A DNA stretch of 34,426 nucleotides, from NCBI GenBank assembly GCA_000934665.2, contig JYFJ02004156.1, positions 1 through 34,426 on the forward strand. The letters run 5' to 3'. Below the pieces are notes generated by a model. That model saw only the letters and a list, made by a program, of their open reading frames with translations, was not told the origin of the DNA and did no database searches. Shown one piece after another: positions 6,246 through 33,382 of the stretch. The translations under genes were made by a program, and so were the position numbers. Source of the stretch: Catajapyx aquilonaris (lineage: Eukaryota). Each line of letters starts with the position of its first letter. The first letter of the stretch is position 1.

Positions 6246-6534
6246 GGGGAGGCGGAGTGGTGCTGCGGTAACGTATGCGCCCATGGATGTTAAGGTCCCA
6301 GATTCAATCCCAACCCGGGGACACCCCCTTCATCTCGTGCAGAGTTCAGGGTCACCTCTGGCTTCGTCTCGGGTGGTATTTCAGATGCACTGCACCTTGC
6401 ACATCCCCTCCTGTCATCCTGCCTGTGGGCCTGGGCGGTATGCTAATGTACTATGTATACACCAACAGCTAATAGTAAAGGTCTATGTGATATACCCTGA
6501 TGGGTGAAAGCATTACCCAACCAGTTATTATATT
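6246..6534 (+). mobile_element. tRNA-derived SINE, family B (internally deleted copy)
   Basis: Head GGGAGGCGGAGTGGTGCTGCGGTAACG shared with the copies at 12812 and 19381; body also shared with 14577. TTA tail. TSD AAACTGGAA(G/T)C at 6235-6245 and 6535-6545. Confidence 0.87.
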
Positions 6535-6951
6535 AAACTGGAATCTAACGTTACTAAGAAACTCCATGGACCATATCTTAAACACTAGAGGTTCCCAATT
6601 GTTACAATTCATCAACCAACTATAGTATTGTGCATGGAAAAAAATATTTTATACTTGCCCTATTGGCCAGCGCTTGTCCAACACCTAATTTAAAAATTTC
6701 TCCATACTATCTATGTAAAACGGAAATTTTGGACCAAGATCACCCTGTTGACGGTACATGTAAGTTTAACAGAAACTAAAATCTAGAGGTGATTGCTGTG
6801 TTGCTGGTAGCGAAGGGGTTAATGCACTTAATGTGACTGAGGAAGTAGCAGGGCTTTGATCTTCCTCTACAGAGCCTACATGGCTGTTTTTTTTTTCTTT
6901 CTTTCCTTCTTGTTTTTTAAGTTTATTTACTTGGTCAGGTGGTGTAATTAA

Positions 6952-7469
6952 CCCTTTGATGGCGGAGTTTTTTGGCCATTTTAGTCTCTTTATGAAAAAA
7001 AAATCTAGTAGGAGTAATATTAATGAAAAACACTATGCTCCAATATTTAACATTTCAACTCGTGGTGGTCCTTTTGAATGTAAAATGCCGAAAAAATTCA
7101 TCTACAGGGTGGTCCAGAAAAAAAATTAACGTGCAATTAACTTGAAACTTAATTAAATTTATTTAAATTTTTAACGTCACTATAAAATTGTTACTGTGGT
7201 TACATAATACTACTAAAACACTGTACTTTGAGAAATTACTACGAGTCCAGACGTCGCATGTTGTCAAAAACTTTCAGGTGGGAGGGGGTATGCTTAGCTC
7301 CCGCTGGGAGGCGGGAAAACTGATTACCATACGCCATGATGGTTGAGCCCCCTTCCACGAGGTGGTAGGAGCAGTTTGAGCCTCAAACTGCGCCATTTTT
7401 GTGTAAACTCTAGCACTCCCAGTTCAAAAACCAGCAGGACATCATATGATGTCCGTAGCCATTAAAGGG
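6952..7469. mobile_element. piggyBac-type MITE
   Basis: TTAA|CCCTTTGATGGC...GCCATTAAAGGG|TTAA; 12-bp TIR with 1 mismatch. Confidence 0.8.
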
Positions 7470-7588
7470 TTAAATGTCAGTGTGTTCTGGGAAATACTTC
7501 GCAGATCATTGGGGTACTGGTGTCCATTGTCCTAATATACTCTACATACTTGTCAACATGCCACATTAAATTTTTTTCTCCCTTTCAG

Positions 7589-8617
7589 GAAAATAGCAAT
7601 GTTTCTGCAACAAGATTAAGAACGTCACAGAAGCCTTTCCTATGTGATATTTGTGGAATTCAGTTTAAGAAGGAATCAGCTTTTAGCTACCATTGGGAAC
7701 GCCACAATAGAAAGGAGCGGCACAATTGCCCAAGTTGTGAAAAGTCATTTTCATCTATTGTGAGACTGCAAGTTCACATGGCAGTCCACTCGAGCAATGG
7801 AAGAATTGTGTGTCGTAATTGTGGTAAGACGTACAGCACAGAGGGTGGATTCTACAAGCACATAAAACTGCATGATAATGGCATTGGTGGCCTAGAGTTC
7901 AAGAGTGAGCCCGCTATTGCTGAGGAACCGCGCAATTGTATGATATGTGGCAAGTTTTTCCCATCCGATTCAAGCTTACAAATTCACTTGGCTTCTCATA
8001 CGAATAGTACCAATGTTGTTTGTCACATATGTAACAAAGCTTGCACCAGCAGGGGTGGTTTTTACAAGCATATTAAATTACATACAAGGTGTCATGTTTG
8101 TAGAATTTGCGACAAGCCCTTCATGTCAGATTGTGCACTGAAACGTCATGAACAGGTACATGCAGATGAGCGACCGTTTGCTTGTAATGTTTGCAGTAGT
8201 ACCTTTAAAACTATCCATCACTTACAACGCCATCACATTTTTCAACACACCAAGCAAATGCAGCGATTACAGTGCCATTTGTGTGACTGTAGTTTCAAAT
8301 ATAAACAGAGCATGACCTATCACTTGAACAAGCACATGGGCATCGAAGCTGAAAAAAAGTTTCCATGCAGCATCTGTGGTGTTGCTTTTACAAGAATAGC
8401 TTATTTAAATCGCCACAGCTCCATTCATAATGGCCAAAGACCATTTACATGTGACATTTGTGGCAAGCAGTTTCGTTTGAAGGGTGGCCTGAAGCAGCAC
8501 CAGGTCATTCACAAGCAGAAGAAACCCCATAAATGCCGTAAATGTGGAAAACGGTTTATGTTTAAGAGTTCTCTTTGCCATCACCGTAGAACCCACGACA
8601 GGACTGGTAAATTATGA
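7589..8617 (+). CDS. C2H2 zinc-finger gene, terminal exon with 11 tandem fingers
   Basis: 11 CxxC-x12-HxxxH(H) motifs with ERPF/QRPF/KKPH linkers. Polypyrimidine tract and CAG acceptor at 7588, in frame. TGA ends at 8617. Confidence 0.95.
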   Translation, partial: ENSNVSATRLRTSQKPFLCDICGIQFKKESAFSYHWERHNRKERHNCPSCEKSFSSIVRLQVHMAVHSSNGRIVCRNCGKTYSTEGGFYKHIKLHDNGIGGLEFKSEPAIAEEPRNCMICGKFFPSDSSLQIHLASHTNSTNVVCHICNKACTSRGGFYKHIKLHTRCHVCRICDKPFMSDCALKRHEQVHADERPFACNVCSSTFKTIHHLQRHHIFQHTKQMQRLQCHLCDCSFKYKQSMTYHLNKHMGIEAEKKFPCSICGVAFTRIAYLNRHSSIHNGQRPFTCDICGKQFRLKGGLKQHQVIHKQKKPHKCRKCGKRFMFKSSLCHHRRTHDRTGKL

Positions 8618-8924
8618 ATTGTTGCATTTGTTGGAACTTGGCAGGAGTGATGTAGAGCAGTAGAGGTATACATTTATGGCATTTATTCGGTTTCTTGTGC
8701 TTGTGAATGACCAGAGCATGACTGGAAATTAATTAACAGGCAGGATGTAGAGGTTTACATTTTGTTCATTTTTGAGATTGATCTTTCTTGTGAATGACCA
8801 GAGCATTATGTGAAGAAACCCATGGGCATAGAAGCTGAAAAAAAAGTTCCCATGCGGCACGTGGTGTTGCCTTTACAAGAAATGCCTATGTAGATTGACG
8901 TAATTATGTGGTATGGCTAAATGG

Positions 8925-9412
8925 TGGCATATATAGATGTGGCGAGGGGGGTGGAGAAACAAAGGGGGAATGTGACCGCACCATCGCCCTAAGACGGCCC
9001 GAGCCCGCCGCTTGGAGCTGTTGGACACTGCATGGGGGACACTCGGAGATGGACAACTCGGGAGCATGCTTTCAAGTGTGGGACAAGTCAGAGCACTATG
9101 ACCGGAGCCATGTGTCATCTATTGCCACAGGCAGTTTTAAAAAACCATCGCCCTCAATGTGATAGAGTTCCAAGCAAGGGAAAAATGGCGGCACTTTTGC
9201 ACCTGAAAGAGATGGCGAGGAACCAGTGAGGATGGCAACTTCCTGAGACCTTTCAGTCTTTCAGAGTCCTAAGCATAGTGCTCTGACTTGTCCCACACTC
9301 GAAATCAAGCTCCCGTGTTGTCCATCGCCGAGTGTCCAGCATGCAACGTCCAACAGCTCCAAGCGCATCAGGCTCAGGATGGTGTGATGGGGAAGTCACA
9401 TTCCCCTTTTTG

Positions 9413-9446
<34 letters not shown>

Positions 9447-9485
9447 NNNNNCCCCCTCCGCGATGTGGGTGACATCTATATGCCA
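8925..9485. repeat. Foldback/MITE-like element with ~175-210-bp imperfect inverted arms
   Basis: 8925-9100 is inverted at 9274-9485 (e.g. GTGTGGGACAAGTCAGAGCACTATG / CATAGTGCTCTGACTTGTCCCACAC). The right arm holds a (TC)n run and an N gap. Confidence 0.8.
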
Positions 9486-9487
9486 GA

Positions 9488-9717
9488 GTCGCTACTGTAA
9501 TAAATGCTCAAGTAAAGTGATAATTAAGTAATTTATTATCTCCCTTTTTTAAATAAAAAAAAGTGTGAAAATATATAAAAATAAAAAATAAAACCTTCGG
9601 TTCAGTTAACGTTGGGGTCGGGGTGGCATTGTCTGCCCTCCCCTCCAACGTCACAGGTGCTTGGCGCAGTATAGCCATTGCTGCTGTTGCGCCATTAAAC
9701 CTTCAATCAATCAATCT
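9488..9717 (+). mobile_element. 5'-truncated non-LTR retroposon with (TCAA)n tail
   Basis: 14-bp direct repeat ATCTATATGCCAGA at 9474-9487 and 9718-9731; ends GCGCCATTAAACCT(TCAA)3. Confidence 0.75.
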
Positions 9718-10011
9718 ATCTATATGCCAGATAAAATTGTAATCACCGGATCTTCAAAACTCAGCAAAGGTCATCTCTGTATGTGTTACCGTTTTTGAAT
9801 AAAAAAATACGCGCAATGGCTTGACTCAACCCTCGTATTTTACTTGGAAAGAAATTAAGCTCAATTTGATTTTTTGGGGAGAGGTACCTTTTTAAAAAAT
9901 TGAATGTTTGTGTCTTTTACTTCAAAAAGAAAATAAAGGCCAAGGTGATTTTTTGGGAGATATTTTTTTTAAAGTGAACCTTTCATTTATTAATATTACA
10001 GATATTATTAA

Positions 10012-14189: not shown

Positions 14190-14560
14190 CATCTGATGAT
14201 AGGCCATACCCATGCAGTGATTGTGACGAGAGGATTGCCAAAATGAATGGGTTAAATGAACACCCTGTCCTGACCATCTTGATGTGAGAGGCTTTACTCA
14301 TGTGACATAATTAAGTGACAAGAAATTTGCTAGGAAGGATCACACAGAAAGTCACAATAGGACTCACACAAGAGAAAAGCCATTCCAGTGCCAAGTGTGC
14401 GAAAAAGGTTTTTCTTCCAGTTCTAGTTACTGCAGGCATGCTTGGCTTCACAAGGGATTGAAACCATTCCCTTGCACCAGTTGTGGCAAAAGATTTGCAT
14501 TTTCACCTGACTTGCAAAGACCTGATTCCTCATTTGATAAAGGCGAAAAACGATGGAAAG
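14190..14560 (+). pseudogene. Decayed C2H2 zinc-finger exon
   Basis: DRPYPCSDC..., KKFARKDHTESHNRTHTREKPFQCQVC...HAWLH, LKPFPCTSCGKRF. Frameshifts, stops and lost His ligands; cut off by a SINE. Confidence 0.8.
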
Positions 14561-14576
14561 AAGCCCTCCTTACGTC

Positions 14577-14873
14577 ACGTATGCGCCCACGGATGTTAAG
14601 GTTCGATCCCAGCCCGGGGACACCCCCTTCATCTCGTGCAGAGTTCAGGGTAACCTCTGGCTTCGTCTCGGGTGGTATTTCCAACAGACTAAACCACCCG
14701 GGGGAGTTCACTAAAATGGCCACGTTTAAGACATTTCATTGCACCTTGCACATACCCTCCTGTCATCCTGCCCGTGGGCCCGGGCATTTCAAAAATATGG
14801 TCTATGTACTACAAGTTACAATAAAGGTCTGTGATGCATACCCTATATAGGGTCAGGCACTACACAAGAATTA

Positions 14874-16250: not shown

Positions 16251-17749
16251 TCAAAGGACACTGAGTTCGATGAGACACTTTCCTTTCATTCCAGAGTACT
16301 CGGCGAACTTCTCCACAACCACTTCTTCGTCTTCCATGAGACCACAAAATTCTATGCTGAGGACCCGTAATTCATCTCCTATGAACTGATTTATGATAGG
16401 CAGAATTGCGAGGGTGAACTCCGAGCTGGTCAGGGTCATCTTCTGCATTCGCTCCATTTTGTTGTAATGCAGAATCGACTGGAAGGTTGCGTCGTCTAGA
16501 GTACCCACCATGTCCAGATTTAAGGATGCTAAATCGTAGCAAAATGACATTAGATAGTGCAGATGATCAGCGTCTAGGGAGTTGGTCCAATCGCAAATGT
16601 CTAAGATCTTGAGAGCCCGAAAGGGAGTGTCCTTCATCCCCAGTTGCATCATTGGGTTACGTCCCACTAATCGGCAACTGATCAGATCCAACCAGAGAAG
16701 GTTTGGGAACACCTTCCACACTTTCTCCAAGTCGACCTCTGAGCAGGACTCAAGGCTGAGAGTCTCCATATGAGGAAGATAGAAGTTGTTGGGACTCAAA
16801 GCCTCTTCCACATTCTCGATGCCTTCAAGCCTTATGGACGTGAGGCGAGTCAGGAGGGGATCCATATCTAACACCTGCTGGGGTGTGGAGGCTGTCAGGA
16901 GGAGCGTCTTAAGATGAAGCAAGTTGTTGAGTTGAGTGAGGGGATGGTCTGGCATTTTGATGCTCAGGTATTCCACCATAGGAAAATGGTTTACCAATCT
17001 CTCTAGTAGGCTAGGCTCAGCCAAACAGGTGTCGAGCTTCCTTACGGAGTATCTGTTCCTGCAACTCACCAGGACCTGCTCAAACAATTTGTCTGGGAGC
17101 CTCATGGACTCCAGCTGGGGAACTGTGTCGAGGACAAATATGACGTCTTCCGCTTGCGTGACCTGGTCCTGGAAATTCACGTGGACCCGAGTGAGGTTTG
17201 TAAACGTCCCTAGGAATACAGTCTGTTCCCCTGATAGTCCCCAAGGGAATTTGAGTGCCTTCAGTTGAGGGCAGCATTGATTGAGGATCGACAAAAAGTC
17301 ATGGTCTTGGTCATCACTAGCCACATAGGTGGGAATCCACAGAGTTTTGAGGTTTACGAGGAAAAGCAGGTTTTCCCTAAAGAGACGGGTCAGCTCTACA
17401 CTCGAGACAGCGATGTAGAGGTGTTCTACTTCCTTCATGACGATGATGTTCTTCAGGACTTCCCTGACCATTAGTACACTAATATTCCAAGCTCTACCAA
17501 GGTGCAGGTGTTTGCACTTGGGGTGAAATATTCCGTCCATGCTGAAATATTGCGAGGGATGACTGCCAATGACAGCTGGCGCTTGAACAATTAATGACTT
17601 GGTGTACATGTCCGCGAAGTGAGCTGGGATATCATTTACCCAATTCTGAAGTTGCCACTTCCATGTTGCAATTAGGGTACAGGCGTGTCTCACCAGACGG
17701 TCAAGCTTGATTAAGCTGAGATATCCTAATGGTCTCGGTAGTGTGTTTC
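16251..17749 (-). CDS. BC-box/LRR protein, coding exon 2 (about 14 LxxLxL repeats)
   Basis: Uninterrupted frame with repeats such as LVNLKTLWI, CPQLKALKF, LPHMETLSLESC and FPNLLWLDLISC; acceptor TTTTGTCTGCAG. Confidence 0.9.
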
Positions 17750-17811
17750 CTGCAGACAAAATGCGATTGCTCAGTAGTATTACACCTTCGTCACAGTGGC
17801 ATCATCCTTAC

Positions 17812-20040: not shown

Positions 20041-23000
20041 ATTAATAATAAATAATAAACTTAAATAATAATAAGTGGCCTAAGTCAGTAAGTAGCCTAA
20101 GTAGCAAGTAAGTAAATATTTATTACCTGCTCGGGCCAAGCCCATTTGCAGGGGGCAGCACCCCTATTACAATATCAATGTAGCCAATGTCACATGAATT
20201 TTATAAGTAGCAACAACAAAAACAAGGTGGCAATAATGTCAGCACTGTAAACGGATAAATTGTGTAGGGGGAATACATGTGTATAAAGCAATTATAAGTC
20301 GCGTCAAAAGCTAGTGTACAGTGAACCTGACAAAATAAAGAGCTTCACAAAATACTGTCTGCATGGAGTAGGAGTTTGGACGCATGGACAAAAAAAAAAA
20401 ATAATACAGTTGGAAAAGAGCTAGTTCAGGGATGCCATGAAGTCTGTGCATCTTATCTGGGGGGGACTTTAGGCCTGTTGAAAAGGTGTTTGCTTCTGGC
20501 AGTTTTGAAAAATGGGCATGAATATAAAATATGATGGAGATTAAGGCGATCGGGGGGATAACATATTGAGCAGTCTTCTTTAGGATCAATTGGGAACTTA
20601 TATCCTTGCACCAATAAATAAAGTGATTCATTTCGCAAATTATAGTCTAGTAATTTGAATCGGTAGGTTATACAGGAAATAGGTTTTTCGTTGGGGTGAA
20701 TTTTTCACCTCAGCGTAGTTGCTGTACCTAGTGGACTCTGCCAGATCTGTGTAATCTTTCTGTATAGTGCTATCTATAAATTGCGTCAAAAGACCGTTAG
20801 CTACAAAGATTGAAGCATGAAGGGTCATCTGTCCAGTTATTCCATGAGGTCCCAAACCCCGCAAGAAGCTGCTCGACTTTGTTTAGCTAATTCACCTTGG
20901 TTCGCGATCTATTATTGGCCATGTAAAGGAAGCATTGTTTAGGCAGATTCTCTGGTTCCATCGTCGATAGCCGGATCAACCATTTAAGCTACAATTTAAA
21001 CACGTTTACAGAAAGTGGTTTGCATCCAGTTTCTAGCCGAATAAAGCAGTTAGCTGAATTGTAAGGGAGAGACAGAAATTTCTTTATAAAAAATAATTGC
21101 AGCCTCTCAATATCCTGTAGATTGTCTAAACCCCAGAAATGGGCGTTGTATAGCATAATCGGAGCTATTTGGGCAGTAAACAATTTTAATGCGACCGAGA
21201 GACGACGGACTTTTAGACTAACTAACGTAGGCCATAAGGCAAAAATAGCTGATTTGCTTTTCTCCAGGAGATGGTCAGCCGCCCTACGGAATTTGCCTGC
21301 AGAAGATAAAATGACACCGAGGTATTTGTACGAAGTTACGATATCTATAGGACTATCTTCCCAGTAGAATGACGTAGATGCAGGCAAAATACCTCCCGAC
21401 CTAAATACTATTACCTTCGTTTTCGTTAAATTGACTGATAATCGGGACTTCGATAAGTAGGTGACCAGGACATTTATTAAACGCTGTAGATAGATGGCAT
21501 TCGAGGCCATAATTACGATGTCATCAGCAAATTGTAAAAAATGCACATCTTCTCTATTAGGTCCAAGATTCACCCCAGGAACTCCCGTATCTACAAATGC
21601 CAATTTTAAGTCAGCCATAAAAATATTAAACAAGGTCGGTGACATAACATCTCCTTGGAGCACTCCTTTTGAAGCCGGGATCTGGGTTGTAGCAGAATCA
21701 GAAACTATTGTAGCATGACGGCAAATTTGTTGAATTAGCCTTAAAATTTTTCCCTTAATCCCGCATGCAGCCAACTTACTTCAAAGAATCTCATGATGTA
21801 CATTGTCGAACGCCTTGGACAGATCAACAAAAAGAGTAAACAACTTGCCCTTGGTTGGGGTTATGTATTTTTGAATAAATGTTAATAGCGAGAATAATTA
21901 TATTATGATCTGTACAGCATCTACCCGGTCGGAAACCCGCCTGTTCTTCTGGTATAAGTTCATGCAGCAAGGTCCACTTATTTATCCGCAGGGTGAGCAA
22001 TTTAGTTAACACTTTCAGGACAGTTATTGAGTAAAGCGATCGGTGTGTAGTTTGCCGGATTTGTTGGGTCCCCTCCTTTAGAGATCGGAATGATCTTAAT
22101 CTGCGCCCATAGGGTTCAGAATGTCTGAATAATCGTATATTATTCAACGCCTTGTTATACATCTGGAGCAAAGCTAATCGAATCTGAGTAGCAGGTATAT
22201 TTAATATTTGGTTTGATATATTATCATTACCCGATGCGGAACGCATGTTTAAAGATTTCAGAACGTTACAAAGCTCGGCAGATGTGAATTGATCCTCTAA
22301 TATCGAGAACTGCATTCCATCTAATACCGTTAGAAGCAAGGCATTATCTGAGTGTTGATAAAAGGTCGCCAAATATCCCATCCAGGCCGTTGGGTCCAAT
22401 TGGTGCCTAATATGAGGGTTCGATTTTTTAAATGAGGTTCCAGAAATCAGAGGAGTTGGGAGCCGTTAATAATTTATGGATCGTATAGCTGCATAGTAAA
22501 TTTTCTTTTTCGCGGAGACGAAGTTTTTATGTAGTTTTGCCTTCTTGAGATAAGATTCCCGGTTTAGAAGGGTGGGGGCTCTTTGCCATTTCGTCAGGCT
22601 GAGTTTCAGTTCTTCTTTTGATACCTTCAGTTGATCGTCGAACCAAGGTTTATGATATCGTCTCTTATACTGAGTAGAAATTTGGCGATATATACCCTCT
22701 TCGCGCAGTAAATCCAAAATATTAGTTGTGAATAGAGTCGCCGCATCGAGATCAGCCATCGGCTCTTTAGGGGGAAAGTTTGTTTTGCCTGGAACTCATT
22801 GCTTTTCATTTTACTGTGCTCTTTGGGATAGGATAGGGACGGAAGGAAGCGGCTGTGGCCTATTAATTACGGAAGCAACCCCCGAATTTTCCTGGAAGGA
22901 TGGGGGAAATCACAGAAAACCACGGTCAGACTTGCTTGCCCCGGGATTTGGTCCCATAGGACCTCCCGATTAGCAGTCGGACACCATAACCCCTCCTCCA

Positions 23001-23110: not shown

Positions 23111-23835
23111 AGAAAATTCGTAACATTCGGAATGTGTTATTTCGAAGACTCCTTCACCTACATAACATCAACTGTTCATGGGAAATGAACCTTTAATAAG
23201 ATTCTATCATCCGAATGTCAAGAATGTACCAGAAACAAGGTGGGTTCGAATATCCAAAGTAAAGAGTTTTTGCATATATGTGCATATAAGCATCATCATC
23301 ATCATATCATATTTCATCATTTTTTTAAAACTTTATGTGGGGATGGCAGATTTCGGCGTTTTATATATCAATAGATGCGCAAGATCAAGAGCATTCTAGT
23401 GATATGACAATAATCGTTTGCCGACAAATGATAAGGTCGTGGGGAGTTTTTACTTGCCATGCTTATATGCATGAATATGCATGGCAAGTAAAAATTCACC
23501 ACGACCTTATTATTCGACGGCAAACAATTATTTTCGTATCACTAGAATGCTCTTGATCTTGCGCATCGATTGATATATGAAATAAAACGCCCCTCGGTCC
23601 AGCCCCACATAGAGAAGAGATCGAGCCACAGCCATTTCCTGAATTGACATGGAATGACCCAGTTAACGTCATTTAAACGTTCGCAAGTCGTCTAGGGGTC
23701 CAAAAAGGACCCCACGCTGCAAGTTAGCGACCAGTTTTTTCCGACCCTAAGTAGACACGGCAAATTCATGATGTAGCAAGCATAAAAAATTGCGCAGGTG
23801 TAAAAAAAATTCATCCCTGTATAGTATTGTACATG

Positions 23836-25056: not shown

Positions 25057-25797
25057 GATATTACTATCCGTCTATTTAGTATAGGTCCCTGTGTTTGACT
25101 AGAAGCAACTCTCCAGAAGAATTAATATTTTATATCGTTGGAAAGCTTGTTGAAATCCACGTTACATATAATTATATGCAAGTTGGTTTCCTATCATCAG
25201 TGTGTAATTTTTTATCGCAAGAAGAAGGCGGAAAGGTGTCATTTTTTGGCTAGTTGCCGACGTCACGCCGCATAATGAATATCTTTCTGACACTTCTCGG
25301 ATACCAAAAAAACCCTCCTGTGAACCCTGGATTGTGCAAATCTTTGTCTATCTAATGTTATATTTAAAACTTAGCAAGCGCCATTTGTGTAATCATAATT
25401 TAGTTAATTGCACGTCTCTGTTACCTCAGCCATTTATAATCCGAATTACTTCGCGAATGCATCGACGGCAAGCTAGAAATGTGCGTGATAAAATTAACCC
25501 GTGCTCTATGACACTAGAAAATTTAAAAGTATTGGTTTATTAAGTTTAATAGGATAAGTACCCAGCCCGCTTTCAGGTGGGAATATACGGCGATACTTTT
25601 AAATACTTTTAAAAATTTTAATGTAATAGAGGACGGTGTCATTTTATCATACACATTTCTGGTTTGCCGTAGATACATTCGCACAGTAATTTTAAATAGT
25701 ACCTTCAATGTCAGCCAGTGTTGTTGTCAGGTGTTGTTGTCATTGTTGATATTACATGATTGTTGGGGATAACCTTTTTTCATATAATTATTAAAGT

Positions 25798-26087
25798 TAT
25801 CAGGATGGGGGTTGGCCAAGTATGTGAGTGTGTGGGGGTGCCGCGGTGGTGTGGCTGCGCGCGCCGGTGTTCCCCCCCCCCATCCTGATGTTCCTCCCAC
25901 CGGGAGTTGTTGTATACTCCGGAGTGAGGGAAAAAGGGCAGTTGGTGGCCGGGCTCGGCGGGAGCCGGTCCTTCTTTGTATTGGACTGAGTGAAAATACA
26001 TTGTGGTCCTGAATTCCTGGATCTTTCCTTGTAGGTAGAACCCCTTTCAGAGAGCTAGTTGGGCCAGGCTCAGGCAAGAGTCTGATA
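25798..26087 (+). repeat. 5' LTR (290 bp, TATCAG...CTGATA)
   Basis: Direct repeat of 32549-32801 with terminal inverted hexamers. Confidence 0.93.
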
Positions 26088-26088
26088 A

Positions 26089-26103
26089 TGGCGCACAACG
26101 TGG
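26089..26103 (+). promoter_or_regulatory. Primer-binding site, tRNA-Lys(CUU)-like
   Basis: TGGCGCACAACGTGG, one base after the LTR; 14/15 match to TGGCGCCCAACGTGG. Confidence 0.85.
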
Positions 26104-26177
26104 ATTTTTCCGGGTAAAGATTACCCGGAGATCCGGAGATTTGGGACGGTAGGTTGCGACCCATAACTGCTCGCAGG

Positions 26178-27541
26178 ATGGCGAGTGGACATGGGCAGGG
26201 TGATGGTGAGGGGTTAACTGAGGCTCAGTTGGCCGATAAGGAGACGCAGTCTGAGAGGGATGATGTTCATTCCCAGGACGGTGTTGTTGGTACCGGATTG
26301 GCCGCGGCTGATCCGGACCAAGAAATGCGGGTGCTGCTCGGTGTAAATGCCGATGCAGATCCGGCTGCGTTGCTTGCAGCATTAAAGGCCAAGTTACTGG
26401 GGAGTACGGTGACTGGCCTAGGCAGTGATGGCGGCCCTGGGGGTGCCCCCCAGGGTACGCTAGAGCAGGGCGGGAATGATGGGCAGGCACCTATCAATCC
26501 GCCGGGGCAGAGCTCGACGCAGGGTGTCGGGTTGCCTGCAGGCCAGGTGGCTGCACCAGCCGTAAATGCAGTTGTCACTCCGGTGCAAGTAGCAACCGGG
26601 GTGGAAAAAAAGTTGTCGGTGCGCGCAGCACCTGAACTTTTTTTTGATGGAACAACGGCCAAATCGGCTTTTGTTTTTCTACAGGAAATCGACAGATACT
26701 GTCGTGTCCTGAAATGCACTAGGCTGCAGGTACTGCAGGATGTACTACCTAGCGCACTTGATGGTCATGCTTTATTTTGGCATGGCTGGAGTTACACGGT
26801 CCATTTGAGGACTGGGACACGTTCGTGTCGGCATTCAGGGCTGAGTTTGAGTGTGTGGGATACACACACAAGCTCCGACAGGAAATGGAGAGGAGGACTC
26901 AAGCGAGTGCTGAGCCACTTTCTCATTTTTTGACGGCCATGAATGGGTACTTCGAGCAGGTCAAGCCTGAGGCTGATCAGCTGGAGAGGGTGCAGTTCAC
27001 GATGCGAAGGTTGCATCCAGAGCTGCGAAATTATTTTCGCGGAAGGACGTTCCAGTCCATCCGTGAATTGGCACAGGCGGCGCCTGCGGCCATGGAGGAT
27101 TTGGTGATCAATAGATCATGGGTGCCTCCAGTGGATGCGAGTGCGTCAGTGGCACCGCAATTGGCATGGTCGGACTCCGGTACAAGGAGTGGCCAGGGGG
27201 TGGGCATGGCGAGTGCAGTCATGAACACACATGCAGGGGGTGATCAAATGTACGGTTGCCCGATGTTGGAGTTCAGTAGTCTGGACCCCCATGGATACAG
27301 CAGGTACGCACCTGGTGTAAATGCGCCCGGAAACGGACGCGGTCAAAGCGACCGGAAGCCGATGCAGGCTGGGTCGCAACAAGGGTCACGTGGTCGTGGC
27401 CGGGGAGGGTCTGCTCAGGGGCCCAGGAGGTGTTGGATATGTGATTCTGATCAGCACCTGAAGATAGATTGCCCGCAGGCCGGGCCAATGCCGTCGGCAC
27501 GTGGCGGAAAAGGTCGTGGAAAAAACGACGACGGGCGGTAG
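26178..27541 (+). pseudogene. gag: gag (capsid plus CCHC zinc knuckle) with one frameshift near 26775
   Basis: FFDG...FLQEID capsid motif, RTQ...EP, CWICDSDQHLKIDC; split over two frames. Confidence 0.9.
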
Positions 27542-30500
27542 ATTGCCGGAAAAAGCAGGCTAATTTACCGCCTTTGTACAAAAATCTCCCGGAATCGCCG
27601 GACAATGACGATGGGGAGTGGCGCCCAACTGAACCATTGATGAGGATTAGCATCCTCGGAGGTGAATTTGATGCGCTATTAGACACAGGGAGCACTGTAT
27701 CGCTAATAGGCCATCAAGTAATTGCATTGTGCAAAACACGCAATGTGGTAGTGAGAGATGAAAAATGCAAGTTGCATTTAGCTTCAGGGCAGGTGCAAAC
27801 ACAGGGTACAGTGACCTTGTGGGTGACCTGGCCTGGGGGGAAGCGGAAACAAAAGTTCTTGTTGCTACCCTCTTTGTCCAAGGAGGTTATCTTGGGCAGG
27901 AATTTCATGGCGGCGACTAATTTGTCCGTTCACGTGAAAGAAAAGGGGTGGACAGTGGGCCTGCAGCCACAACGGGTAATCCCGTTCAGCAGGCCACTCG
28001 AAAGTGCAGAGTTAATGATGACTGACACTTATGACCCCCTGGCAAAACTGGTTGAAACCGTTGACCTGGGGGAGTCGGATAAGACCCTTTTACATGCTGT
28101 ACTGAGCAAGTACAAACATGTGCTGACCGACAAATTGGGTTGCACTCATTTGGTTGAATTGGAGGTGGACACGGGAGGGCGAAGGCCCAGGGTGTACCAC
28201 CCCCGCCCGACTCCACCCAGAAAAAGGGTGATAGTTGATGGCATAATTGATCGGCTCATTCTGGATTAGGTCATTGAACCGGCGACGCCATATGCGACGC
28301 CCAGTCCGATAGTAATAATCCCAAAGAAATCGGGGGGCTACAGGTCATGCTTGGATCTGAGGCAATTGAATAAATTGGTCTTGAATCCGGACTGTTATCC
28401 ACTGCATCGTCCAAGTGACATTTTCGCGCATATTGGCGATAGTGCATTTGTGACTTCTTTGGATATAGGGATGGCTTATCATCAGATTCCAGTCCACCCG
28501 GATTCTAGAGATTTACTGTCCTTCAGTAGTCATCGTGGCGTCTGGAGATATCGGAGAGTGGCGTTTGGGCTCAGCAGCGCGGGGTCGGCCTTATCTAGAG
28601 CGGTGACTATCGCTCTAGGGGGTCAGAATTGGCGGCATGTTTGCCATTTCAGCGATGACATATATGTATATAGAATATAGTCAGTCCCTTGAGGAGCACA
28701 TTCTTCATTTAGGACAGGTGTTGAACGCTTTGGGAAAAGCGGGATTCACAATCAGCCTGTCAAAAGTGCAGTTATGTAGGACGGAGCTGGCAATATTGGG
28801 TTTTGTTTGGCGCGAGGGGAAGATTGCACCCGATGCCAGCAAAACAGAGGCGATCCGGAATTTTCCGGTTCCAAAAACGGTCAGGCAGTTGAGGTCATTC
28901 TGCGGATTAACTTCGTTTTATCGCGAACTAATCCCCAGATACGCCGACTCAACGACCTACTTAAGAAAATTACTTAAGAAAGATGCAATTTTCCGGTGGG
29001 ATGGAAATTGCGACAGAGATTTCAATGAGTTGAAACAAAAGCTGGTGAGTGTTACGGAACTCACATTACCAAAGCCGGATTCTGAGTATATTATACACAC
29101 GGATGCGTCAGGCTTTGCCATATCTGGTATTCTCCAGATTAAAAGTGACTCAGGCCAGCTGATGCCTGTGGCCTTTTTCAGCCGGGCGCTGAAGGGGGCG
29201 GAGTTAAACTATTCGGTTAGTGACAAGGAGGCACTTGCCATATACGAATCAGTTATGAAGTGGCGGGAGTATTTGGAGTACTCCAAGTTCGTGGTATTCA
29301 CAGACCACGCCCCCCTCGTTTATTTCGATAAGCTCATTAGCCGTTCCGGAAGGATTGGCCGTTGGAGTCTTAATCTCCAAGGTTTGGATTATCAAATTAA
29401 ACATGTCGCGGGGAAGGCGAATGCGGCAGCTGATTGCATCTCGCGGATGTATGACCATCCCACATTGCCAGATAAAAGAGTGGAACCGGATCCCACGTGT
29501 GAAAAGTTGGCCGGAGGGGCTGACGCAGTGGGAGGTGCTCGCGCCGAAATTCAAGGCGGTCTGGTGGCGGCCGTTATGGCGGTCGATGAGTCAGTACCTG
29601 TCAAGGGTGGTGATGAGGGGACTGGGGGCATTGATCTCAAGGAATTGCTGGAATGTCAAAAAGTTGACGCAGATTTAAAAGCGCTGCGGGAGCACCTACA
29701 AGGGGCCCGCGGGGCGGAAATGGACGCAGGTGCCATTGCGAGACTTAAGACGGACCAGCACATGTACCTGATCAATAATTCCGGGCTCATTGCTGAGTAT
29801 ATACCCGGGGGTGAACAAGCTGGCAATTCGCCGGATTATAACCCGTTCAAGGTCATTGTTCCTCTGGCAATGAGGGACAAGGTCATGCGTGCTTATCATT
29901 CCGACAATAAGGTTGGACACTGGGGATCGTACCGTACGATCAAACGCATGAGGCACCTGTTTTCTGGGATCGGACAGAAAAAGGATGTCATGAACTTTAC
30001 GAAGCGATGCGACCTCTGCCAGAGGACAAAAGTGGACAGGTGTAAACCGCTAGGGTTGTTGCAACCAAGCGAGCCACCTGTCCAAGCATTTGCCGACATT
30101 GCCACTGACGTCATCGGCCCCCTGGTGCGCAGTAAAGGGGGCAAGAAATACATACTTGTTATCGTATGTAAGCTGTCAAAATGGTTTGAGGCATACCCTT
30201 TAACGAGAGTATGCGCTCGGAAGGTTACTGAATGTTTGGTAGACTTCTGTACGCGTCATGGTTACGCGCAAAGATTAATTGGTGATAATGCCAAGTATTA
30301 CCGTGGGAAAATATTCATGTCAACATGTCAGGCTTTGGGCATAAAAGCATCGTTTTCGAACGTATACAGCCCATGGCAAAACATGACAGAAACGGTAAAT
30401 AGCCAAATTAAACGGCTGTTAATCGCTTACACTCATGATCATCATGATTGGTGTAAAACATTGGGGTCGGTAATGTACGCGTGGCGCACATCACCTTCCT

Positions 30501-30961
30501 TTGTGAGCGGCTACTCCCCAGCGGAATTAGCAACAGGGAGACAGTTCCTCCTCCCGTTCGAGTCGCAATATCTGAAGGCAGCAGATAATGCATCGGAGGA
30601 GCAGGTGCGAGATTACGCAGACGGTCTAAAACTCCGTATGGCGAAATCAATTGCATTTGCACGTGCCCGCATTATTGCGGAACGGAAGAAACAGAAAAAA
30701 TATTATGATCGCAAACGACGACATGGCATTTTTAATGTTGGTGATTTGGTACTGCGTAAATGTCACGCGCTATCAAACGCGGCGCAGGGGTTCACACGAG
30801 CTCTTGCGCTTAAGTATGATGGCCCATACGACGTGGTTAAACGTGTGCATGATGTTTCATACATGTTGCATAACCCGGTCACGAAAAAGGTTTTCGGGCC
30901 AATTCATATTTCGGACTTAAAGAAATATGTACCCCCGCGGGGTGGTGTTGCGGCAAAGTAA
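27520..30961 (+). pseudogene. pol: pol (protease, RT, RNase H, integrase) with an in-frame stop at 28267-28269 and a frameshift near 28675
   Basis: LLDTGS; LDIGMAYHQI and FSDD; HTDASG, DKEALA and TDH; HHCC zinc-binding, D-D-E and GPY motifs. Confidence 0.95.
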
Positions 30962-31706
30962 GGAGCGGTGCGTACTGTGGAGTTGCTTGTAATTTCTTTC
31001 TCCTCCCTGTCGGGTGGAAGAAAAAAAAAGCCATCTGAAAAAAAAGAGGATGGTGGGGATGCGGGTTCACACGCATTTTGGCTGTTGAAAAAAAAGGGTT
31101 GACGCCCTTGAACGACAAGCTTCTCTTTTCGGGACGAAATTAGAGGCAACCTGTTTTTGGGGTAGGGGGAACCTTACCAGGAACCAGGGGGGGGTGGCTG
31201 GAGAGGGGGGCTCCCAGCCACAGTCCTGTTTACAGGATATCGATAAGCCGAGGAAGGACGAAGCCCTGCGGCATATGATTGTGGGAACAAGGGTCGAGGC
31301 CCTTGACCCGCGATTACCCCAAACCTGTACGCATGGAAAGGAAAGGGGATACTTCGGGGTAGGGCAAGGCCTTATCAGAAGGAAGGGTAGGGTGTCAGGT
31401 GGACATCCTAACCGCACCCCCGCATTTTAGGAGTCGAAAAAGGGTGGTTGACCTGTTTGACTTCTGGAAGGAAGGGGGAGAAGAAGCCGTTGAGAACGGC
31501 AGGTGTCCTCCGGATACATTTCGGAGGGTGACTCGATGATTCAGAAGTCGTTTCTGGACCACTTGTCACCCCTTTTTCTTCTTTATTTGCTTATTGACGA
31601 ATAAGAAATAAGGGGGAGGGGCGAGCTTGGTCACCACGGAGGAGTGGGTTGATATAGCTCGTTTCTCAGCATCCTCGTCTCACTTGCAAAGTTGCTACTG
31701 AGCAGG

Positions 31707-32426
31707 ATGGCTGGCACCATGGCTGGAGAAAATTCCGGGTCCAAGAAGACTTACAGCGGGGCCGCCAAGGGGCAGCGCGGGGGCGGTGGCAAGAGAGGGC
31801 CATCTTCCTCCCGGGAGCGGGCTCCTTCCCGGGGCCGGGGAGGGAAGCAGAGGAAGGAGGGGCGATCTGTTTTGGTGGGCCACACTTTTGTGGAGCGGGA
31901 CTTTCCGTTCTCCAGGAGGGCGGTGGCCCGCGAGATCGCCAAGGACCTGCCCTGCTCACACCCGAGGGAGGGCACGGCGCCAGCGGGGACCAGTTACCGG
32001 CCTGCAGAAGAGGAGGAGAGGGCCGACGACGGATCTGGCCCGGTCCTGGTCCTGGTGGAGCCGGAGGAGCCCCTGGTGCATAACTTGGCACCGGGGGCCT
32101 ACCTCAAGTGGAGGAAGACCCAGATGTTTGCAGCGAGAAAGAGGCTGGAGGAGGAGAGGCGCCTGGTGCAACAGGAAGAGCAAAGGGCGTCCCTCGCTTT
32201 ACTCGGCATCTCGCCAGGAGGACCTGAGGTATCTCCTGAGATGCTGGTCGGCCAGGTTACCAGCATCGCTCTGCAGTATCGTATGGAGGTGCATCGGCTG
32301 CGGGAGTTGGCGGAGGGGAGGAAGCAGCCACCACCGACCCCGGGCCGGTTCCTGGACGAGGACGGCGGGAACGTAGAGGAGATGGAGGATCAGGAGGAGG
32401 AGGCCATTCTCCGCGATCAGGAGTAG
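31707..32426 (+). CDS. Retrotransposon ORF3, 239 aa, unknown function, not env-like
   Basis: Intact sense ORF between pol and the PPT; ATG in CAGGATGG context; GC-rich third positions; basic N-terminus, E/R/Q helical centre, acidic tail. Confidence 0.72.
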   Translation: MAGTMAGENSGSKKTYSGAAKGQRGGGGKRGPSSSRERAPSRGRGGKQRKEGRSVLVGHTFVERDFPFSRRAVAREIAKDLPCSHPREGTAPAGTSYRPAEEEERADDGSGPVLVLVEPEEPLVHNLAPGAYLKWRKTQMFAARKRLEEERRLVQQEEQRASLALLGISPGGPEVSPEMLVGQVTSIALQYRMEVHRLRELAEGRKQPPPTPGRFLDEDGGNVEEMEDQEEEAILRDQE

Positions 32427-32536
32427 CGGGGGCCGGTGTTGAAGAAGAAAAAAAAGGACAAAGGGACGTGCAGTTGCCAGTGTGTGCTGGGTCTTGCTTT
32501 TGTATGCATGTCCATGTGTGCTTTCGCACTTGTATT

Positions 32537-32547
32537 GGCGGGGGGAA
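32537..32547 (+). promoter_or_regulatory. Polypurine tract
   Basis: GGCGGGGGGAA just before the 3' LTR. Confidence 0.8.
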
Positions 32548-32548
32548 T

Positions 32549-32801
32549 TATCAGGATGGGGGTTAGCCAAGTATGTGAGTGTGGGGGGGGGGGGTNTCCT
32601 GATGTTCCTCCCACCGGGAGTTGTTGTATACTCTGGAGTGAGGGAAAAAGGGCAGTTGGTGGCCGGGCTCGGCGGGAGCCGGTCCTTCTTTGTATTGGAC
32701 TGAGTGAAAATACATTGTGGTCCTGAATTCCTGGATCTTTCCTTGTAGGTAGAACCCCTTTCAGAGAGCTAGTTGGGCCAGGCTCAGGCAAGAGTCTGAT
32801 A
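32549..32801 (+). repeat. 3' LTR
   Basis: Matches the 5' LTR except for 2 substitutions and a collapsed GC-rich segment at the N (32596). Confidence 0.93.
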
Positions 32802-33048
32802 AAGTAAATGCTTTTAAATTTAATTTTAAATGTTTGTAAGGCAATACTCTCCTTGCAAACATTGAATGATGCATATCACATGGGCTAGGGATATTTATTT
32901 ATGGTGTTAGCATAAAAATCAGAGCATGCTGGCATACATAGAGGGACAAGACACATGGCCTCTATATTTTGTGTAGCCCTTACGGAAAATATTTTCCCGC
33001 CAGATTTATGTCTGTTAATTGCCTAACAGAGAGTAGCGTAGGTATATT

Positions 33049-33382
33049 GGGGCCGTCCAGACGGGCCAACCTTAGCCGCGGCCAGCCGCGGCTGGTCGAG
33101 GCCGCGACGGTTCACACGGCAACGGCAACGGCCAGGCCACGGCTCAGAAGTTGGCCAAGTTGGCCGACTTCCTGGAAGTTGGCTCGCTGCTTGGCCACGG
33201 CTTGGCCACTGCTTGGCCTCGGCGACGGATACTGCGCGTCACTTGTTTTTCGTCGCTGCCATGACTACCGGCCACTATTACAAATGCGGGTGGCTGTTAA
33301 ATATGTGCCCGTCTGAACGGGTACCGTGGCCAGCCGTGGCTCCGCAAGCCGGGTCCGACGCCAGGGCCGCGGCCAACCTTAG
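33049..33382. repeat. GC-rich MITE-like fragment (possibly PIF/Harbinger)
   Basis: CCGTCCAGACGGGC is inverted as GCCCGTCTGAACGG at ~33307; many GGCC(A/G)CGGC repeats; termini uncertain. Confidence 0.4.

Follow-up and report, generated by a model that had tools for sequence, protein, structure and literature searches.

A candidate accessory gene between pol and the 3' LTR of a young Ty3/gypsy retrotransposon

The element and its third open reading frame

The window analysed here is the whole 34,426-nucleotide (nt) stretch of contig JYFJ02004156.1. Repeat search and alignment of long terminal repeats (LTRs) delimited on its + strand one full-length Ty3/gypsy LTR retrotransposon at 25797-32802. 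This element carries gag, pol and a third open reading frame (ORF), ORF3, which an earlier note on this DNA had placed at 31707-32426 of the + strand, with 239 amino acids (aa), in the position of env. The frame, its place and all the peptide stretches quoted in that note were found in the sequence. We tentatively favour the reading that ORF3 is a genuine lineage-specific accessory gene, that is, an additional ORF (aORF), of this Ty3/gypsy family and not an env. The features of the element are as follows.

25792..25797, no strand: direct repeat TAAAGT, the left copy of a target-site duplication of 5-6 nt; the same six letters stand at 32800-32805.
25797..26088, + strand: 5' LTR, 292 nt, ends uncertain by 1-3 nt (repeat families D1/D2, alignment, empty-site joint).
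26089..26103, + strand: primer-binding site TGGCGCACAACGTGG, adjoining the 5' LTR (read from the sequence).
26114..26154, + strand: leader with putative donor-like sites cgg/GTAAAG at 26114 and acg/GTAGGT at 26149 (sequence).
26178..27541, + strand: gag, with one frameshift inside 26762-26933 (weak Retrotrans_gag match, PF03732, E=0.0018; CCHC knuckle).
27451..30961, + strand: pol, comprising protease, reverse transcriptase, RNase H and integrase with an SH3-like end (Pfam, frames).
27519..27525, + strand: slippery heptamer A AAA AAC for a -1 shift from gag to pol (sequence; putative function from the X XXY YYZ rule).
30958..30963, + strand: putative donor-like site aaa/GTAAGG over the pol stop codon (sequence).
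30962..31706, + strand: non-coding spacer, 745 nt (stops in all three frames, no codon periodicity, stable predicted fold, repeats with hairpins).
31660..31705, + strand: putative acceptor-like sites cgtttctCAG/C, ending at 31669, and ctactgagCAG/G, ending at 31705 (sequence).
31707..32426, + strand: ORF3, 239 aa (open frame, periodicity, predicted structure, composition).
32537..32547, + strand: polypurine tract GGCGGGGGGAA, adjoining the 3' LTR (read from the sequence).
32548..32802, + strand: 3' LTR (repeat families, alignment).

ORF3 begins 745 nt after the pol stop codon (30959-30961) and ends 121 nt before the 3' LTR (32548). From one stop to the next, its frame spans 257 open codons, a length reached by 0.36% of 5000 dinucleotide shuffles of the 774-nt stretch and by 0.7% of those of the whole stretch from pol to the polypurine tract. 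The codon-position periodicity of ORF3 (chi2 50.5, p=3.8e-9) was as strong as that of the N-terminal half of gag, and the 745-nt spacer before ORF3 showed none (p=0.35). The GC contents of 0.68, 0.50 and 0.77 at codon positions 1, 2 and 3 follow the classical pattern of a G-rich first, a lower-GC second and a GC-rich third position. ORF3 is more than a chance open frame. Since the periodicity in 240-nt windows was significant only from about 31923 on (p=3e-4 to 6e-6), the coding evidence is firm over about residues 75-239 but weaker at the RG-rich start.

The start codon of ORF3 lies in the same context as that of gag, as the earlier note had claimed. The 34-kb window holds exactly two copies of the 10-nt motif GCAGGATGGC, one at the gag ATG and one at the ORF3 ATG, against an expectation of 0.05, and none of 100 shuffles contained at least two. 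Both starts have a purine at -3, G at +4 and CAG directly before G-ATG, and the DNA around them is alike over the 10-mer only. The identity of the two contexts suggests that ORF3 is integrated into the expression scheme of the element. We also considered ORF3 as a duplicate of gag. This was ruled out: BLASTP against both gag halves gave a best E value of 0.42 and the starts share the 10-mer only. The sole local likeness, APSRGRGGKQRK versus APGNGRGQSDRK (E=0.42, not significant), is RG-rich.

The predicted ORF3 product has a basic Gly/Arg-rich N-terminus, a helical middle whose two to three helices are charged, and an acidic tail, in agreement with the earlier description. Residues 1-60 are basic with RG/RGG repeats (charges +14/-3, isoelectric point 11.8), the RG-rich basic stretch spanning residues 21-50, and acidic segments occupy residues 101-128 and 203-239; there is one Cys. 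In a single-sequence AlphaFold2 (AF2) model, with a mean predicted local distance difference test (pLDDT) score of 57.8, residues 1-128 were unstructured (mostly pLDDT <50), and helices were predicted at 129-165 (pLDDT 77-89), 177-202 (74-82) and 223-234. The model comprises helices and disorder only, with no globular domain. One loose, weak export-signal-like match, LVGQVTSIAL, was found at 180-189 at the level of a motif. In a complex prediction for self-association of residues 120-239, a control scored equally high. ORF3 contains no G-quadruplex motifs.

By simple Kyte-Doolittle hydropathy, used here in place of SignalP or TMHMM, ORF3 has no hydrophobic or signal-like stretch (maximum 19-residue mean 0.91; mean of residues 1-25, -0.93), which bears out the statement of the earlier note that signal peptide and transmembrane segment are lacking. 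A degraded remnant of an errantivirus-type envelope gene is, therefore, the least probable of the explanations considered here, and an extremely improbable one. Its position between pol and the 3' LTR is the only point that such a remnant would explain. Against it stand not only the hydropathy values but also the lack of any env family in Pfam at E<=1 and of a viral structure match to the low-confidence model. In addition, the preceding spacer has stops in all frames and no coding periodicity.

Assignment of the element to Ty3/gypsy follows from its direct LTRs with a target-site duplication, the order of the pol domains, the primer-binding site and the polypurine tract. The Pfam order in pol is RVP, RVT_1, RT_RNaseH, Integrase_H2C2, rve and SH3_Tf2-1, with integrase last. 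The LTR ends are TTATCAG...CTGATAA, a 7-nt inverted repeat, and not the usual TG...CA. Aligned with each other, the LTRs show 99.5% identity over 206 nt and 95% over 42 nt, and the 3' LTR is 33-37 nt shorter than the 5' LTR at a G/C-rich G run with an N at 32596, which may be an assembly gap. A 9-codon upstream ORF lies at 26088-26117; its ATG spans the junction of the LTR and the primer-binding site and its stop overlaps the donor-like GTAAAG at 26114.

The gag and pol frames overlap at 27451-27541, with the heptamer A AAA AAC inside the overlap, 14 nt ahead of the gag stop. Because it coincides with this canonical heptamer, the frame change from gag to pol is probably programmed and not a lesion. 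The lesions proper are the gag frameshift and two in pol, an in-frame stop at 28267-28269 and a frameshift inside 28619-28680; ORF3 has none. These counts are those of the earlier note, which had taken an intact ORF3 beside broken gag and pol as evidence in its favour. Three lesions in 4784 nt predict 0.45 in 720 nt, with a probability of about 0.64 of finding none. Therefore, the contrast says nothing on selection and carries no weight; the same note had cautioned that a short ORF could be free of lesions by chance.

Age of the insertion and sister copies in one sample

The view of sister copies comes from summary tables of Logan contigs; the four DNA runs behind these contigs belong to one sample, probably the one from which the assembly itself was made. 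In each of the four runs, a contig joined 25791 to 32800, skipping 7008 nt with six letters common to both sides, as expected of the empty target site. Thus, either the insertion is polymorphic in the sample, or the site was duplicated before the element inserted. Although this copy has gag and pol broken at three points, its insertion is very recent or polymorphic.

The family has multiple copies, which differ in age. Of the 197 contigs of run X1 that matched the element, 57 were at least 99% identical to it, 39 fell at 95-99%, 47 at 90-95% and 54 below 90%, and all 30 bins of the element were covered. The contigs do not give copy counts, and some variants skip parts of ORF3. Both regions with a frameshift in gag or pol showed short length differences between this copy and the sister contigs, so the breaks look private to this copy. 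The 99.5% LTR identity, the empty-site contig and the spread of contig identities mark the family as young, recently mobile and apparently still so.

ORF3 is present in diverged sister copies. Contigs cover 31626-32166 at about 3%, 5% and 18% difference, which argues that this region has been carried through a long history of the family. A contig over 31646-32166 had 14 differences and one gap letter (net +1), and another over the same interval had 27 differences and two gap letters (net +2). The most diverged contig, over 31626-31997, had 66 differences in 372 nt and three gap letters (net +3). On the other hand, spacer contigs at 9-11% difference had 22 gap letters in 352 nt and 18 in 194 nt. 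The few gap letters in ORF3 compared with the many in the spacer favour constraint against insertions and deletions in ORF3.

Splice-like sites, spacer RNA and the readings of ORF3

The donor-like sites GTAAAG and GTAGGT that the earlier note had reported in the leader are present, at 26114 and 26149, and CGTTTCTCAG forms an acceptor-like site at 31660-31669. No other ATG was found between 31600 and the ORF3 start (31600-31712 scanned). Thus, after a splice from the leader, the ORF3 AUG would be the first past the junction. The 7-kb element has only ten GTRAG sites, one of which is the aaa/GTAAGG at the pol stop. Joining this donor-like site at 30958 to 31670 or 31706 would, to judge from the sequence, put integrase in frame with ORF3. 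Among the DNA contigs listed, none joined an ORF3 acceptor to a leader donor or to the donor at the pol stop, which is uninformative either way.

The pol-stop donor raises another explanation for ORF3, namely a facultative C-terminal extension of Pol, or integrase. The spacer would then be an intron of 712-748 nt running from 30958 to 31669 or 31705, and the disordered basic and acidic tail would tether integration complexes to chromatin, the role of chromodomains in chromoviruses. The exact position of one of so few GTRAG sites on the pol stop, the restoration of the ORF3 frame by both acceptor-like sites and the ending of integrase in an SH3-like domain without a chromodomain are consistent with this explanation. 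However, being in frame is a 1-in-3 event, and ORF3 has an ATG of its own in a strong context identical to that of gag. We regard the extension as quite improbable.

The spacer (30962-31706) is predicted to fold more stably than shuffled sequences, with z=-7.08 on the + strand (-319 versus -256 kcal/mol) and z=-5.02 on the - strand. Within it, diverged repeats occur at 31091/31286, 31156/31353 and 31072/31421. Short hairpins lie in these repeats (AAAAAGGGTTGACGCCCTTGA at 31091 and AACAAGGGTCGAGGCCCTTGA at 31286, of the form AAGGGTYGASGCCCTTGA). Stable folding is not confined to the spacer: all 44 of the 300-nt windows across the element had z<=-0.85 against dinucleotide shuffles (median -3.3), with extremes down to -7.15 in the leader and early gag and down to -6.51 in the spacer, and ORF3, at z=-2.4 to -3.3, was like pol. 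Flanking control windows (n=18) had a median z of +0.15, and 3 of the 18 fell below -3. As an observation in its own right, the + strand of 25797-32547 looks like genome-scale ordered RNA structure. The stable flanking folds (23400-23699, z=-7.9; 9000-9299, z=-4.1; 33000-33299, z=-3.7) are probably inverted repeats or other mobile elements. Rfam returned nothing above the gathering threshold; a 20-nt match to HIV-1 SL4 at 27132 scored 27.4 against a gathering score of 31.

If ORF3 is an accessory gene, we infer for its product the role of an RNA-binding regulator, and the mechanism proposed here is derived from composition and layout only. Judging from the sequence, the basic RG-rich part might bind the element's own RNA, like the RG-rich flanks of the gag zinc knuckle, and the modelled helices might serve self-association or bind a host partner. 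The target of the protein, after transcription, would be the unspliced genomic RNA, whose export, stability or packaging it would affect. Splicing of a leader donor (26114 or 26149) to an acceptor (31669 or 31705) would yield the subgenomic mRNA for ORF3, and the ORF3 AUG, the first past that junction, would stand in the same strong context as that of gag.

A more specific proposal takes ORF3 and the hairpin-rich 745-nt spacer together as an independently evolved pair, like Rev and the Rev response element (RRE) or like CERV. The spliced mRNA would lack the spacer, the RG arm would bind the repeated hairpins, the helices would oligomerise, and the unspliced genomic RNA would be carried or protected. 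On this proposal, the unusual codon usage would be the trace of a gene recently captured or recently arisen de novo. We consider this pairing unlikely.

A number of observations weigh against reading ORF3 as an accessory gene; they concern its coding signal, its splice sites, its sister copies, its codon usage and its relatives. As to the coding signal, the first third of ORF3 lacks significant periodicity (p=0.31 for window 31683-31922 and p=0.08 for 31803-32042). In addition, the second sense frame stays open over 224 codons (31702-32376) and the third over 141, the former indicating that the region is poor in stop codons in general. This region is only 16% T. Together with the low ESM recognition score of ORF3 (2101, under the 2300 reached by 91 of 100 known-family proteins), these features are those expected of an untranslated frame that is open by chance in a stretch rich in G and poor in T. 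However, such a frame was already very unlikely from the dinucleotide shuffles (P=0.0036-0.007) and from a periodicity that has the classical pattern and is absent from the adjoining spacer. The second frame has a W/R/G-rich translation and an atypical codon-position pattern, and is probably a by-product of the low T content.

As to splicing, the pyrimidine-rich acceptor at 31660-31669 singled out in the earlier note does exist but is unremarkable. The 6458-nt internal region holds 24 acceptor-like YAG sites of comparable quality, about one per 270 nt, and an arbitrary point has about a 14% chance of lying within 40 nt of one. At 31662, G replaces T in every sister contig listed there, which shortens the pyrimidine run.

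In the sister copies, the contigs with net +1 and +2 would be frame-breaking unless the changes fall in the 61 nt before the ATG. Three joints lie in or at ORF3 (720 nt) compared with seven in the 4784 nt of gag-pol; the sequence between the two sides of each joint is marked unknown. One, 31694 to 32049, skips 354 nt and removes the ORF3 start with the disordered half; another, 31856 to 31935, skips 78 nt of ORF3 in frame; and the third, 32362 to 32509, skips 146 nt and removes the ORF3 stop. The part that varies coincides with the N-terminal third of ORF3 that lacks periodicity. The codon usage of ORF3 is also unlike that of gag and pol. Codons ending in G or C make up 76% (177/232) in ORF3, 50% in RNase H-integrase (362/729, p=5e-13) and 53% in gag (213/400, p=6.5e-9), and the GC content at third positions is 0.77 versus 0.51-0.60 in gag and pol. 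Such usage is as compatible with a foreign or recent origin as with a special role.

These points bear on the possibility that ORF3 is a passenger or relic, either a coding stretch captured from a host or mobile gene by the ancestor of the subfamily or an old accessory gene now drifting, and open because the copy is young. Besides the codon usage, the frame-changing contigs and the three deletion or replacement joints, the N-terminal third without periodicity speaks for it, and an intact ORF3 beside broken gag and pol is, as calculated above, expected by chance. Some aORFs do arise by transduction (PMC7264820). However, transduced ORFs are typically in one or few copies according to the same source, whereas ORF3 is found in contigs at about 3%, 5% and 18% divergence. 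The net length change in the most diverged contig is exactly 3, the start context matches that of gag exactly, and no search returned a host or other source gene. We consider a passenger or relic a real but rather doubtful possibility.

Finally, no relative of ORF3 beyond this one sample appeared in any search. Pfam gave 0 families at E<=1, and an HMMER scan of 1.84 billion representatives and a word-indexed search of 5.8 billion proteins (lengths 131-419 only) gave 0 matches each. PDB sequences gave 0 at E<=10, the ESM Atlas no usable match, Foldseek of the low-confidence model against BFVD and PDB 0 at E<=0.001, and scans of metagenome and viral collections 0 loci. The check named in the earlier note, for a match to a known env or a captured host gene, thus returned none in the Pfam, protein, PDB and Foldseek searches.

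Neighbouring features and comparison with known systems

Other parts of the window, all on the - strand, carry further features. In host DNA, an open frame of 516 codons at 16251-17801 has a leucine-rich, repeat-like sequence; it had no Pfam match and no homolog among the 8000 candidates scored. Arrays of C2H2 zinc fingers lie at 7466-8617 (Pfam-confirmed) and 14311-14850, and fragments of a non-LTR reverse transcriptase at 20989-22465.

The env of errantiviruses is like ORF3 in its position in the element only; ORF3 lacks the signal peptide, the membrane anchor and any match to an env family. Regulators of the Rev/Rex type are small proteins with a basic, Arg-rich nucleic-acid-binding stretch and helices, encoded near the 3' end. 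ORF3 resembles them in being small, in having a basic stretch and predicted helices and in lying near the 3' end, and the RNA upstream, predicted to be highly structured, would be intronic to a leader-ORF3 mRNA. However, there is no homology, and the Arg-rich part of ORF3 is RG/RGG-like and predicted to be disordered, not helical. Moreover, the whole element, and not only the spacer, folds more stably than shuffles.

As a class, non-env extra ORFs are already known. In plant LTR retrotransposons, aORFs lie most often between pol and the 3' LTR, and conserved ones are recognised by their presence in all or most copies and not in one or few (PMC7264820). LTR elements of bdelloid rotifers carry varied non-env ORF3s (PMC5408684). 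ORF3 shares with the aORFs of these two sources the place and strand, the non-env nature, the restriction to a family, the frequent lack of an assignable function and, to judge from the sister contigs, probably the occurrence in many copies. The bdelloid ORF3s described in PMC5408684 are recognisable enzymes (GDSL esterase, DEDDy exonuclease), whereas the ORF3 studied here is an orphan and mostly disordered. Unlike the plant case, the host here appears animal-like from the C2H2 zinc-finger array and the fragments of long interspersed nuclear elements (LINEs) in the window. Within this known class, ORF3 itself, as far as sequence comparison goes, resembles nothing known.

A scan with the RNase H-integrase region found two metagenome contigs, L001 and L002, the latter degraded. 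L001 is distantly related, its pol being 32% identical to that of the window, and the contig has gag, pol, a stretch of about 660 nt without periodicity and then a same-strand ORF of 1168 aa (6455-9958; periodicity chi2 158, hydropathy maximum 1.13) with a purine-rich tract directly after its stop. The LTRs are off the contig, and this third ORF likely lies inside its element. It has an acidic start and a long, charged, coiled-coil-like end, with no Pfam match and no hydrophobic stretch. As a homolog of ORF3 it was rejected, the two sharing no likeness (best E=1.8). Judging from this one case, third ORFs other than env may be a recurrent feature of this part of the Ty3/gypsy tree.

How simple elements come to acquire retrovirus-like regulation, or new interactions with the host, can be seen from the extra genes of LTR retrotransposons. 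The present element usefully combines membership of a young, apparently still mobile family with an orphan ORF whose codon usage is its own, a start context that gag shares exactly and an adjoining, very structured non-coding stretch. Should transcripts and copy-to-copy constraint not confirm the accessory gene, ORF3 would be one more family-specific ORF of unknown use; if they do, animal Ty3/gypsy elements would have in it a second, tractable example of an accessory regulator. Few such extra genes have been assigned a role, and the clearest case in animals is CERV.

CERV, encoded by Cer1 of C. elegans, is an orphan protein translated from a spliced mRNA, and export of the unspliced genomic RNA depends on it (PMC10309623). 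It has 517 aa from five exons, three of them in the gag frame, with folded domains H, M and G and a Cys-rich loop, according to the same source; in contrast, ORF3 has 239 aa in a single ORF after pol and one Cys. ORF3 is not a member of the CERV family, as size, exon structure and domains differ. The library searches gave no sequence likeness of CERV to ORF3; CERV itself was not compared with it directly. The resemblance is one of kind: both are orphan, non-env extra proteins of Ty3/gypsy elements with a helical hairpin or zipper part (for CERV, PMC10309623), and in our working model ORF3 would, by analogy with CERV, be made from a spliced mRNA and act on the unspliced RNA of its own element.

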